32,946 nt of DNA from contig JBDRIM010000024.1 in NCBI GenBank assembly GCA_043816005.1, positions 1-32,946 on the forward strand, read 5' to 3'. The DNA is from Candidatus Micrarchaeota archaeon (GTDB lineage Archaea > Micrarchaeota > Micrarchaeia > Anstonellales > Bilamarchaeaceae). Shown one piece after another: positions 30,001-32,946 of this stretch. Made by a program: the position numbers. The stretch's first letter is position 1, and every line of letters starts with the position of its first letter.

Positions 30001-32946
30001 TTCAATAAAATTTACAATTGCCTTTAGACCAGTCCCTTTGAGTTTTGCAATTTCATCTATTTTTTTTGTATCAATTCCAGAAAATTCAAATGCTGGTTGT
30101 TCTATTTTTGAACTTACATATGCAAGTACTTGTGCCACTTCTTTTGGTTCTTTTCCTCTAAGATCAAAACAAATACCAAGTTTGAATCTTTTATATTCAC
30201 CAGTAAAAATTACTTCGTCTCCACCGAACATTTAATCATCCTCCAAGCATTTTATTAGTTGTAAATTAAATAAGTTCGCAAAGATCAATAATAAAAAGCT
30301 ATTTGGCCATTTTCTTTAGTTGTTTTGATAAGTTATTGTAAGAAAACATGGTGTGCCTCGCGAGCCTTTATTTTTTTAAAGACGAGCGAACCAAAGTTTG
30401 AAGTAGGAATACGACGAACTTATATTAATGATCTTTTCATTAGTATTATCCAACACGCCCCTGTAGCGCAGAGGTAGCGCGCGTCCTTGGTACCAACTTT
30501 TTGGAAACGCGATTGTTGCGATGCAACAATGCGCCCATTGTTCGATTCGAACAATTGGGAGTTGGATCAAAACTGGTTGTTTGAAAACCCTTTCGGGTTT
30601 TCGGTGAAAACCATTTTTGCGTAAGCAAAAATTAGCAATTCAGTTTTTTGGTCCTTTTTTTCTAAAAAAGGACAAAAAGGACGAGGTCACGAGTTCAATT
30701 CTCGTCGGGGGCTTATTTAATACCATTTTAGTCTGATTATATAAATGAGCTTTGAAATGATATTAAGGTATATAAATTTATATGTAGGATGCTAATAATT
30801 GATATCATGTCACGGGTGTCATCATGAAGTTAATCAGAATTTTCTTGTTAATACTGATTTTATCAGCTTTTAACTTTGCTGCAACTCGTGCAGTAAACGG
30901 TACTGCTACTTCTTGTGTTCCAGGAGCAGTTGGTAATTATTCCACAATCCAAGCTGCAATAAATGCTGCGAGTGACGGAGATACAATAATTGTCTGTTAT
31001 CAAGGTCCGTCATACTCAGAAAATGTAGATATTAACAGATCAATAAACTTATATGGAAACCAATCAGCAGTAAGAGTTTATGCTTCAAACAGTTCTGATC
31101 ATGTTTTTCATATTTCAAGTCAATATGTAAATGTAAGTAATTTTACTTTAAGCGGTGCAGCTAATTCTCTTAAATCAGGCATTCGGATTTATGCATATAT
31201 GAATCCTTCTTATTCCACCATAACCAATGTGACTGTTCACAGTAGTTATAATGGTATCAGTAATGAAAAACCAGATATTGGTAACACTTTCATCTCAAAT
31301 ACAATATACAATTGTAGCGCGGGTTTCTATATCTTCTCACCAAACAATACTTTCATTTCTAATCTTGTTTATAACACTTCATTTGCCTTTGATATAAAAA
31401 ACTCATCTAATATTCTAACTTCCAACACAGCCAGCAACAACTCAGTTGGTTTCATGGTAGAATCTTTTAGCAACAACAATATATTAACAAACAACGTGGC
31501 CAATAACAACACTCAAGCTGGTTTCTCCATATCCTCCTCAAGTAATTACAACAACCTAACAAATAACACCGCATATAACAACTCCTACGGTTTCTATCTA
31601 TCCTCAAGCAATTATACTACATTAACAAACAACACAGCCTCCAACAACTCTCAAAATGGTTTCTATCTATCATCAAGCAATAACAATAATTTAACCTCCA
31701 ACACAGCAAATAACAACTCCCAAAGTGGTTTCTATCTATCCTCAAGCAATAACAATAATTTAACCTCCAACACAGCAAATAACAATACACAACAAGGTTT
31801 CTCATTATCTTCAAGCAACAATACTATACTGACAAATAATACTGCATTTATCAATATATATAATGGATTTCTTTTAACTTCAAGCAACTACAATACCTTA
31901 ACTAATAATACGGCGTATAACAATACTGAAGTTGGCATATACCTCTACACGAACTCTGACTATAATAATCTAACTAATAATCTCGTATACAATAACATTT
32001 TGTTTGGTTTCTCCATATCTTCAAACAATTATACTACATTAACAAACAATACGGCCAACAACAACAACAATTCTGGTTTCTATCTATCTTCAAGTAATTA
32101 TACTACATTAACAAACAACACAGCCAACAACAATTCTAATTTTGGTTTCTCCATACCTTCAAGCAATAACAACAATTTAACTTCCAACACAGCCTATAAT
32201 AACACCCAATCTGGTTTCTATCTAACTTCAAGCAATTATACTACATTAACAAACAACACCGCCTCCAACAACAACAATTCTGGTTTCTCTTTAAGTTCAA
32301 GCAATTACAATAACTTAACAAACAACACAGCCTCCAACAACTCCAATTATGGATTCTCTATATCTTCCTCCAATTACGTTACTTTAACCTCTAACACAGC
32401 CTCCAATTCTAGTGGTGGTTTCTCCATATCTTCAAGCTCTAACAACAACTTAATCTTCAACACGGCCCACAACAATACTATTCGTGGTTTCTACATATCT
32501 TCAAGCTCTAACAACAACATAACCTCTAACACAGCCTCCAACAACACTGGGAGTGGTTTCTATCTATCCTTAAGCAGCAACAACCTACTAACTTCAAACA
32601 TGGTTTATGGTAATTCGTCGTATGGAATTTTCCTACTATCTACAACTAACAATACTTTTGTAAATAATTTAGTGGCCAACACTGGTTATGGATTTGTTAT
32701 AGCACAAGACAATATCAGTAATTATACGACAAACAATATTGAAAATTGTAGTTATGGTTTTTATATTAGTTCTTATGTCGGAGGAGGCGGAAAAGGTCCG
32801 TTAGTCTATTATAACGGTTCATTGGTGACTACTTTCTTAGGAAATAATCTCACAAATACAACATATGCAATTTACTTAAATAATTCAAACTTAACTTTCT
32901 CAGGTAACAATGGAATTTACAATACCCCATCAACAGGAAAAGAAAT

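Follow-up and report, generated by a model that had tools for sequence, protein, structure and literature searches.

Families of transposed tRNA introns in the Thermoproteales were reportedly described by Fujishima and colleagues in 2010. In bacteria, the dispersed repeats termed REP, BIME and REPIN consist of a short palindrome with a tail, form inverted doublets, nest within one another, are patchily distributed, arise without target duplication and are associated with RAYT (Y1-HUH) transposases. MITEs of DDE transposases carry terminal inverted repeats, are flanked by a target-site duplication and have an autonomous partner with matching ends, while the introner elements of eukaryotes and the palindromic elements of Rickettsia are small, non-autonomous DNA repeats that are tolerated in genes, in one case by splicing. 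For archaeal tRNA introns, the available text of a 2014 review gives a length range of 11–129 nt and treats the mechanism of entry as unknown (PMC4090602). In the accessible part of a recent preprint on Asgard archaea, most tRNA genes are interrupted, many introns are missed by standard tools and introns have been gained repeatedly at bulge-helix-bulge (BHB) sites; cross-tRNA families account for 1.5% of introns, compared with 28.3% in families of ≥80% identity in the Thermoproteales, and this part of the text offers no route of arrival and contains 0 mentions of Micrarchaeota or DPANN (bioRxiv 10.64898/2026.10.13.758758). The available sections of a study that included ARMAN-2 (Candidatus Micrarchaeum acidiphilum) describe non-canonical and multiple introns, relaxed hBH junctions, two T-arm introns in tRNA-Pro(GGG), including one at position 53/54, and an epsilon2-type EndA that cuts relaxed motifs (PMC3239211). 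A literature search, with subscription journals and bioRxiv supplements outside its range, found no paper describing the repeat or the introns reported here, and the main text of PMC8561730 contains 0 occurrences of "intron" or "repeat".

The window analyzed here, a 32,946-nt stretch of DNA, belongs to a Micrarchaeota genome that is 86% complete (termed G000; the genomes of relatives are numbered G001, G013 and so on). On its forward strand, a tRNA-Thr(GGU) gene with a 185-nt insert in the anticodon-loop was identified at positions 30457–30712, as proposed in a preliminary description of the locus. The sequence of the 5′-exon (bases 1–37, 36 nt) occupies 30457–30492, the intron at position 37/38 occupies 30493–30677, and the 3′-exon (bases 38–72) occupies 30678–30712; upon removal of the insert, the joined exons fold into a cloverleaf whose form is shared by the orthologues without introns in G015 and G033. 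The gene was missed by ARAGORN under default settings and by Rfam; when introns were allowed, ARAGORN miscalled the locus as tRNA-Phe, and relaxed scores returned mostly noise. No Rfam family, box C/D RNAs and group I introns included, was found for the insert among matches at the site with E-values up to 1. The insert folds far more stably than its shuffled versions (z = −7.9; 0 of 200 shuffles were as good). The best predicted fold of the precursor (−105.7 kcal/mol) lacks a BHB motif, and the splice-competent fold (−97.6 kcal/mol) costs about 8 kcal/mol; in the latter, the junction is of the relaxed hBH type, with 3 of 4 central-helix pairs and a G35-A mismatch. Since the tRNA-Thr(GGU) pattern has a single match in the 86%-complete genome, the pre-tRNA very probably must undergo splicing.

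The intron is composed of several modules. Its left end (30493–30574, forward strand) is an end module, here designated E, with hairpin arms at 30493–30507 and 30560–30565 and a tail at approximately 30566–30574; comparison with the intact left E of tRNA-Thr(UGU) and tRNA-Pro(CGG) in G000 and of tRNA-Thr(GGU) in G013 indicates that the A-run of this copy is interrupted by a nested insert. The latter (30512–30555, without strand assignment) consists of two perfect hairpins (30512–30530 and 30537–30555) termed "type II", which belong to a genome-wide intergenic repeat family. The core (30567–30649, forward strand; alignment A1, model R1) comprises a clamp stem around hairpins P2 (30583–30602) and P1 (30613–30632), and the right end module (30643–30673, reverse strand) is an inverted E, in which the tail is followed by a hairpin at 30651–30673.

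A census of interrupted tRNA genes was performed by aligning the compact tRNAs of relatives (71 ARAGORN sequences, from which a few miscalls or intron-bearing sequences were dropped) to G000 with free long gaps. The alignments were then curated by hand, and the borders of eight genes were adjusted partly with the BHB motif in view, so that the BHB rates given here lean high. A total of 62 introns of 24–241 nt (median 57) was identified in 35 curated intron-bearing genes, 14 of which harbor one intron, 17 two, two three and two four; one probable contaminant gene (contig C72) is counted among the 35, there are five compact genes besides, and a two-intron tRNA-Phe duplicate (C66) was left out. 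The census thus exceeds the earlier figures (24 tRNA genes, 1–3 introns of 44–241 nt), with larger numbers and wider ranges. Rfam detects 12 tRNAs over its cut-off, compared with 41 census genes.

The central splice helix is complete (4/4 pairs) in 37 of the 62 introns, compared with 5% for shuffled introns and 8% for swapped hosts, and at least three of its four pairs are formed in 60 of 62 (29% and 40%, respectively). The 29 anticodon-loop (37/38) introns alone form a mean of 3.4 central-helix pairs, versus 2.2 with swapped hosts. An intron-internal helix is present in 52% of introns and in 21% of shuffles, which are the valid comparison for this helix, the host-swap null being uninformative. 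The intron set as a whole conforms to the strict or the relaxed BHB motif; the tRNA-Thr(GGU) intron, taken alone, reaches just 3/4. As for the enzymes, G000 encodes an EndA of 391 amino acids that matches the epsilon2 EndA of ARMAN-2 (4FZ2) over its full length (E = 1.9e-133), and an RtcB ligase whose sole copy lies on contig C6. The suspicion that C6 and C77 derive from a second organism is weakened without being removed, since C77 is syntenic with G001 and C6 carries the sole RtcB; the compact or duplicate tRNAs on C15, C36, C56, C66 and C72 look like contaminants. We read the inserts as real tRNA introns of the BHB type, which these enzymes would splice.

In the type of enzyme, the non-canonical and multiple introns, the relaxed hBH junctions and the T-arm introns of tRNA-Pro(GGG), the genome resembles ARMAN-2; it differs in its up to four, much longer introns per gene, and repeat-built or inverted-end introns are not described in the available sections on ARMAN-2 (PMC3239211). 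The large majority of interrupted genes, the failures of standard tools and the repeated gains at BHB sites recall the Asgard archaea, whereas the accessible text on the latter records almost no cross-tRNA families (bioRxiv 10.64898/2026.10.13.758758).

Each E consists of a variable stem, a T-run, a 3-nt loop and an A-run, followed by a CCAAAA tail. The palindromic hairpin had been credited with about 26 copies; 25 were found, against 0, 2 and 1 in three Markov-4 controls, and a relaxed rule raises the number to 47. A loose E detector, which makes some misses and false calls, flags 33 of the 62 G000 introns. A set of 236 introns was composed of those of G000 and those in 106 genes of relatives, many of which had been retrieved with the E pattern. 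Of the 139 full E units in this set, 138 are located at an intron end (89 forward at 5′-ends and 49 inverted at 3′-ends), with the hairpin always towards the exon. As transcribed, the loop is purine-rich in 81 of the 89 units at 5′-ends versus 0 of the 49 at 3′-ends. Pairs in the E stem are Watson-Crick in 703 of 712 cases (units were required to form at least three of four), whereas the splice helices contain 43 G-U and 0 A-C among 248 pairs; E thus acts like a palindrome at the level of DNA, and the splice helix like a helix of RNA. The E and inverted E that bound an intron constitute imperfect terminal inverted repeats, and several introns, such as that of tRNA-Ser(UGA), consist of just E and inverted E, their borders falling on the hairpin feet or close to them. 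Both intron ends carry tails of type a and of type b (38/14 and 11/11); this does not prove that orientation is free, since each of several separate sub-families might be fixed.

E also occurs outside introns. The second interrupted tRNA gene of the window, tRNA-Ala(GGC) (6487–6715, reverse strand), contains a 40-nt intron in the anticodon-loop (6640–6679) and one of 118 nt in the T-loop, built as E-P2-inverted E (6501–6618), with a 4/4 central helix at both junctions, and a solo E (6719–6750, forward strand) lies 3 nt upstream of base 1 of this gene, its hairpin facing the gene. In total, 36 of 41 E units in G000 are located in or within 45 nt of tRNA genes, a space of approximately 11 of the 109 kb of non-coding DNA, and of the five remaining units, two border on duplicated tRNA ends. 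Besides this tRNA-Ala, three tRNA-Leu genes have an E located at base 1 or a few bases from it; further copies follow tRNA-His and RNase P RNA and, in relatives, SRP RNA. A different family is represented by G144, in which a 140-nt E-core-inverted E unit is matched 19 times; three congeners yielded no match. At 12 of the 16 G144 loci listed, the unit abuts a tRNA 3′-end directly after base 73 (nine one way round, one inverted and two between convergent tRNAs). The copies in G155 are mainly intergenic, among the matches listed, and in some Nanoarchaeota metagenome-assembled genomes (MAGs) E directly follows stop codons.

The family had been described as restricted to one genus. This holds for the core, which is found in part of the genus, and does not hold for E, which is present in other genera and in another family. 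The E pattern matches 31 of 39 congeners (0–29 strict copies each), 43 of 176 genomes of the order (8 of 48 genera) and 38 of 401 genomes sampled from the phylum, with 1–3 copies at most outside the order. Among 185,579 species genomes, a 26-nt form of E was detected in 51 stretches, all labelled as Micrarchaeota or an unplaced archaeon, of which 47 lie near tRNA motifs; a second form was detected in 48 stretches, seven of them in Nanoarchaeota/Woesearchaeota MAGs. In IMG/VR, 38 viral stretches contain E, 14 of which are labelled giant-virus MAG, and the reversed pattern yields 0; the viral copies occur in tandem, in inward-facing pairs and often after stop codons. The likeness of the viral repeat to E, which extends over about 20 informative bases, may reflect either homology or convergence.

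All eight core copies listed in the preliminary description were recovered at their places. They are pairwise 54–82% identical (mean 69%, versus a mean of 50% for shuffles), and the reported covariation of P2 was likewise observed, with 4 of 8 pairs changed on both sides by Watson-Crick swaps only, a count that comes from seven related sequences and is not a probability. Model R1, for which 29 candidates were scored per genome, matches 7 of 151 genomes of the order, all within the genus (6 of 25 congeners), and the six core-bearing relatives fall within one clade of an EndA tree, which is based on one gene, has 9 of 27 inner branches open and lacks G004 and G038. Core units occur in many isotypes at positions 15/16, 37/38 and 53/54; among 22 units examined in relatives, 20 are in tRNA introns, one is in a 23S rRNA gene and one in a tRNA trailer. 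Hairpins of type II are repeats of intergenic DNA throughout the genome (2.05 perfect hairpins per kb in non-coding versus 0.14 per kb in coding DNA), and the A-run of E is where they nest, the tRNA-Thr(GGU) intron being an example. One type II insert shows a duplication of approximately 10 nt, and at 6990–7135 of the window (no strand assigned) an intergenic array combines type II hairpins with repeats of the sequence around the start of the adjacent gene.

Movement of introns between positions had been argued from tRNA-Thr(GGU) of G001, the genome closest to G000 (EndA 89% identical), which was reported to carry a 77-nt intron in the D-loop and none at 37/38. The D-loop intron is present, with a length of 83 nt, and position 37/38 is indeed free. 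The interpretation of this contrast as a hop is not supported, since 37/38 holds an intron of the E type in G013 and also in G024, the sister of G001. In the 25 of 40 genomes in which tRNA-Thr(GGU) was matched, an intron is found at 15/16 in 19, at 37/38 in 16 and in the T-loop in four, with several unrelated intron families per site. Because introns at 15/16 and 37/38 are widespread and E-type introns occupy 37/38 in G024 and G013, two losses, one in each genome, are the simpler reading. A better case for movement is provided by a whole intron that is 87% identical in tRNA-Lys(UUU), at 15/16, and in the T-loop of tRNA-Leu(UAA), the two copies differing just in the bases that pair with the exon; by eye, a like unit is located at 37/38 of tRNA-Leu(UAA) in G001. 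Three whole E introns distinguish the sister genomes G002 and G015, without target duplication or flank loss. The two genomes also differ by non-E introns that are lacking in G015, so that these differences may be losses; the comparison covers 5 of 14 G002 loci with a G015 partner, one of which is a paralogue, and G016 has no orthologous loci. No target-site duplication was found at the three G002/G015 sites or at tRNA-Ser(UGA) of G000 compared with G001.

Related introns are therefore found at different positions of different tRNAs, and a large share of near-identical whole introns is not: between isotypes, whole-intron identity reaches at least 80% for 2 of 61 introns, at least 70% for 17 of 61 and 90% for none, with 0 for shuffles. 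As in the transposed introns of the Thermoproteales, for which the available texts leave the mechanism unknown, related sequences occupy different tRNAs and positions under the constraint of the BHB motif (PMC4090602; bioRxiv 10.64898/2026.10.13.758758). In contrast to those introns, the likeness here is modular (2/61 versus 28.3% at ≥80%, by identity measures that are not identical), lengths reach 241 nt rather than lying within 11–129 nt, and the building block is found on its own elsewhere in the genome, as well as in other lineages. Of the original proposal of a mobile family of BHB introns, the shared modules and the movement of units between genes and positions are thus retained, whereas whole-intron families are weak and the end module is a wider DNA repeat. 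Because this module is found outside introns and outside the genus, what moves is probably not the intron as such but a palindromic unit of DNA, which turns into an intron.

In being a dispersed short palindrome with a tail that forms inverted doublets, nests, is patchy and shows no target duplication, E is similar to REP and REPIN sequences. It differs in its tail, in the lack of a linked Y1 transposase and in that, within this genus, copies are concentrated in stable-RNA genes and would be removed by predicted splicing. No Y1 transposase was found in G000, at its completeness of 86%; the gene is present in 44 of 176 genomes of the order without tracking E, and no E was found beside the 10 Y1 loci examined. 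On these grounds, a Y1/RAYT enzyme was rejected as the mover. Among the 10 congeners with at least 15 strict E copies (G000 included), three have a Y1 transposase and two a reverse transcriptase. The imperfect terminal inverted repeats of E units are as expected of a MITE, a target-site duplication is not found, and the tolerance of small non-autonomous repeats inside genes recalls introners and the Rickettsia palindromic elements, with the differences that EndA would act here at BHB motifs in place of the spliceosome and that no target duplication is seen for E units. In short, the introns work like transposed tRNA introns but without the whole-intron families, and they look like REPINs but without a linked RAYT.

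We favor, with moderate confidence, the reading that approximately half of the introns are built from selfish, non-coding palindromic DNA repeats of a REP/REPIN-like kind, the introns being of the BHB type. The basic part would be the 25–30-nt hairpin-plus-tail E, and two inward-facing E's around a variable core would constitute a REPIN/MITE-like unit, inside which P1, P2 and type II nest. Such units would enter highly transcribed genes for stable RNAs at their exposed boundaries, with the foot of the hairpin leading and no duplication of the target. Within a tRNA, they would persist only where the last bases of the intron pair with the exon, and the resulting relaxed BHB introns would be removable by the broad-specificity epsilon2 EndA and RtcB. 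The units may create new introns and may also occupy old intron sites; where one end decays, the remainder would pair with the other end as an intron helix, and sub-families such as the core unit would go on to colonize one tRNA after another, with their direction fixed. For the chemistry of movement, our guess is a strand-specific route through single-stranded DNA.

Several observations count against an origin from DNA repeats. In each of the 30 core units checked (eight in G000 and 22 examined of 32 in relatives) and of the 20 P2 hairpins, the orientation agrees with that of the transcript, which is not expected from random DNA insertion. This sense-only pattern, in copies that are not independent, is a better fit to gene conversion, to a step through RNA or to a DNA route specific for one strand. 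The failure of Y1 transposase and reverse transcriptase to track the repeat also weighs against the reading, as do the 3/4 helix of the tRNA-Thr(GGU) intron and the cost of its splice-competent fold. In an RNA step, EndA and RtcB would reverse-splice excised introns into other stable RNAs at any site with which the last intron bases can pair, and the products would then be copied to DNA by reverse transcriptase or RNA-templated repair, the E copies outside introns forming a separate, older layer. Such transposition at the RNA level, which we regard as unlikely, would account not only for the sense orientation, but also for the precise presence or absence of introns between G002 and G015 without target duplication, the matching of the central helix to its host, the core unit in 23S rRNA and the 87%-identical intron at two positions of two tRNAs; a reverse-transcriptase gene is present in G000. 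It leaves unexplained the full units directly after base 73, in a trailer and in inverted orientation, and the E copies before base 1, after stop codons and in viruses. Moreover, the copies of the 87% pair differ exactly in the exon-pairing bases, P2 loops read as GNRA on the antisense strand in 18 of 20 cases, and the reverse transcriptase, which was rejected as the mover, is present in just 10 of 40 genomes, does not track E and was not found in most E-rich genomes.

A different explanation of the cross-tRNA likeness is gene conversion through conserved exon blocks: the introns would be old and at ancestral positions, with repeats enlarging or homogenizing them by recombination and creating no new ones. 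The intron site at 53/54 of tRNA-Pro(GGG), known from ARMAN-2 (PMC3239211, in its available sections), is E-built here, which indicates that E takes over old sites too. Likewise, the D-loop introns of tRNA-Val(GAC) in G000 and G001 share one 3′-tail and carry different E hairpins, those of tRNA-Lys(CUU) and tRNA-Lys(UUU) in G013 are near-identical, and precise losses are common. All of these observations agree with padding of existing introns, but the occurrence of the same unit at non-homologous positions (D-loop versus T-loop; tRNA versus rRNA versus trailer) and the introns made of nothing but E and inverted E, such as that of tRNA-Ser(UGA), make it improbable as a full account. Finally, it is very improbable that E is a functional signal (a bidirectional terminator, or a site for processing or protein binding) that is retained at the ends of RNAs and serves again within introns, a role that would suit its location directly after tRNA, SRP and RNase P ends and stop codons and the T-runs on both of its strands, but not its patchiness among close relatives (0–29 strict copies in the genus; six in G144 versus 0 in three congeners), its presence before base 1 and inside introns, where termination would harm, or its reading in both orientations on transcripts.

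On the source of archaeal tRNA introns, the available texts of the 2014 review (PMC4090602) and of the Asgard preprint (bioRxiv 10.64898/2026.10.13.758758) provide no mechanism and no route, respectively. Here, about half of the introns are made of a recognizable repeat, which also occurs outside introns and varies among close relatives. Gain, loss and mechanism become testable with metagenomes resolved to strains and an enzyme of known type, which represents a concrete lead on the origin and spread of these introns. In practice, most tRNA genes in these genomes are missed or miscalled by standard tools. More tentatively, and in our estimation rather doubtfully, E could be an archaeal "Introner", that is, a hairpin-ended DNA family common to DPANN archaea and giant viruses, which a putative structure-targeting enzyme would insert at RNA-processing boundaries, giving rise to new EndA-spliced introns in tRNAs and rRNAs. 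If so, no source of archaeal BHB introns would have been identified before E, and an exchange of a non-coding element between archaea and the viruses of eukaryotes would be indicated.

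In addition to tRNA-Thr(GGU), a second hidden tRNA gene, encoding tRNA-Ala(GGC), was identified on the minus strand of the window (positions 6487-6750, a region that includes a solo copy of E, the 25-30-nt palindromic hairpin-plus-tail module located at intron ends). This gene is interrupted by two introns of 40 nt and 118 nt, and the solo E is positioned 3 nt upstream of base 1 of the tRNA. Elsewhere in the genome, the genes for tRNA-Ala(CGC) (contig C54, 14629-15033) and tRNA-Trp(CCA) (C64, 76246-76484) harbor four introns each. A second intron family, which lacks E and whose ends start with GCCTT or GGCCTTTT, is recurrent in tRNA genes for Tyr, His, Leu(UAG), Val, Ser and Thr (contigs C10, C41, C72 and C80, and sequence stretches L018, L124 and L138). 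Second copies of the genes for Thr(UGU), Lys(UUU), Ser(GCU), Phe and Val(GAC) are found on the short contigs C15, C36, C56, C66 and C72; these copies are compact for the most part and probably originate from a second organism in the bin.

E was also noted in other settings. The 23S rRNA gene of a congener (stretch L404 of genome G013) contains, close to its 3′-end, a full unit consisting of E, the two-hairpin core and an inverted E. A short conserved GC-rich stretch, shared by two genomes (L111, corresponding to C5:19601 of the genome under study, and L102), is abutted by an inverted E; it possibly represents the terminal part of a small RNA that lacks annotation, and an Rfam search of this stretch yielded no match. 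In another Micrarchaeota MAG (L342), E lies within a sequence resembling a pilin leader. The sole E match with a bacterial label (L317, Saprospiraceae) is embedded in the same type of AT-rich repeat context as the viral matches; this contig is possibly of giant-virus origin and mis-binned.

With respect to enzymes, the genome encodes, in addition to the 391-aa epsilon2 tRNA splicing endonuclease (EndA), a short EndA-like reading frame of approximately 160 aa (L002:1459-1950; C5:14421-14663), as well as a reverse-transcriptase gene (C41:53391-53813) and a weaker reverse-transcriptase match on C4.

Several repeats in this genome are adjoined by duplicated tRNA ends, comprising three copies of what looks like the 3′-end of tRNA-Asn (C60:1-226), one copy of the first 8 nt of tRNA-Arg(UCU) (C64:56700-56810) and one of the first 10 nt of tRNA-His (C80:20310-20400). 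Arrays of type II elements, the perfect hairpins of a genome-wide intergenic repeat family, are located at gene starts, where the start region itself is present in several copies, both in the window (6990-7135) and at eight further loci (C40:12550-12800, C40:33400, C62:18290-18430, C73:41825, C79:5980, C1:2560, C61:33117 and C54:26702), an arrangement resembling that of insertions by which the beginning of a gene is duplicated.
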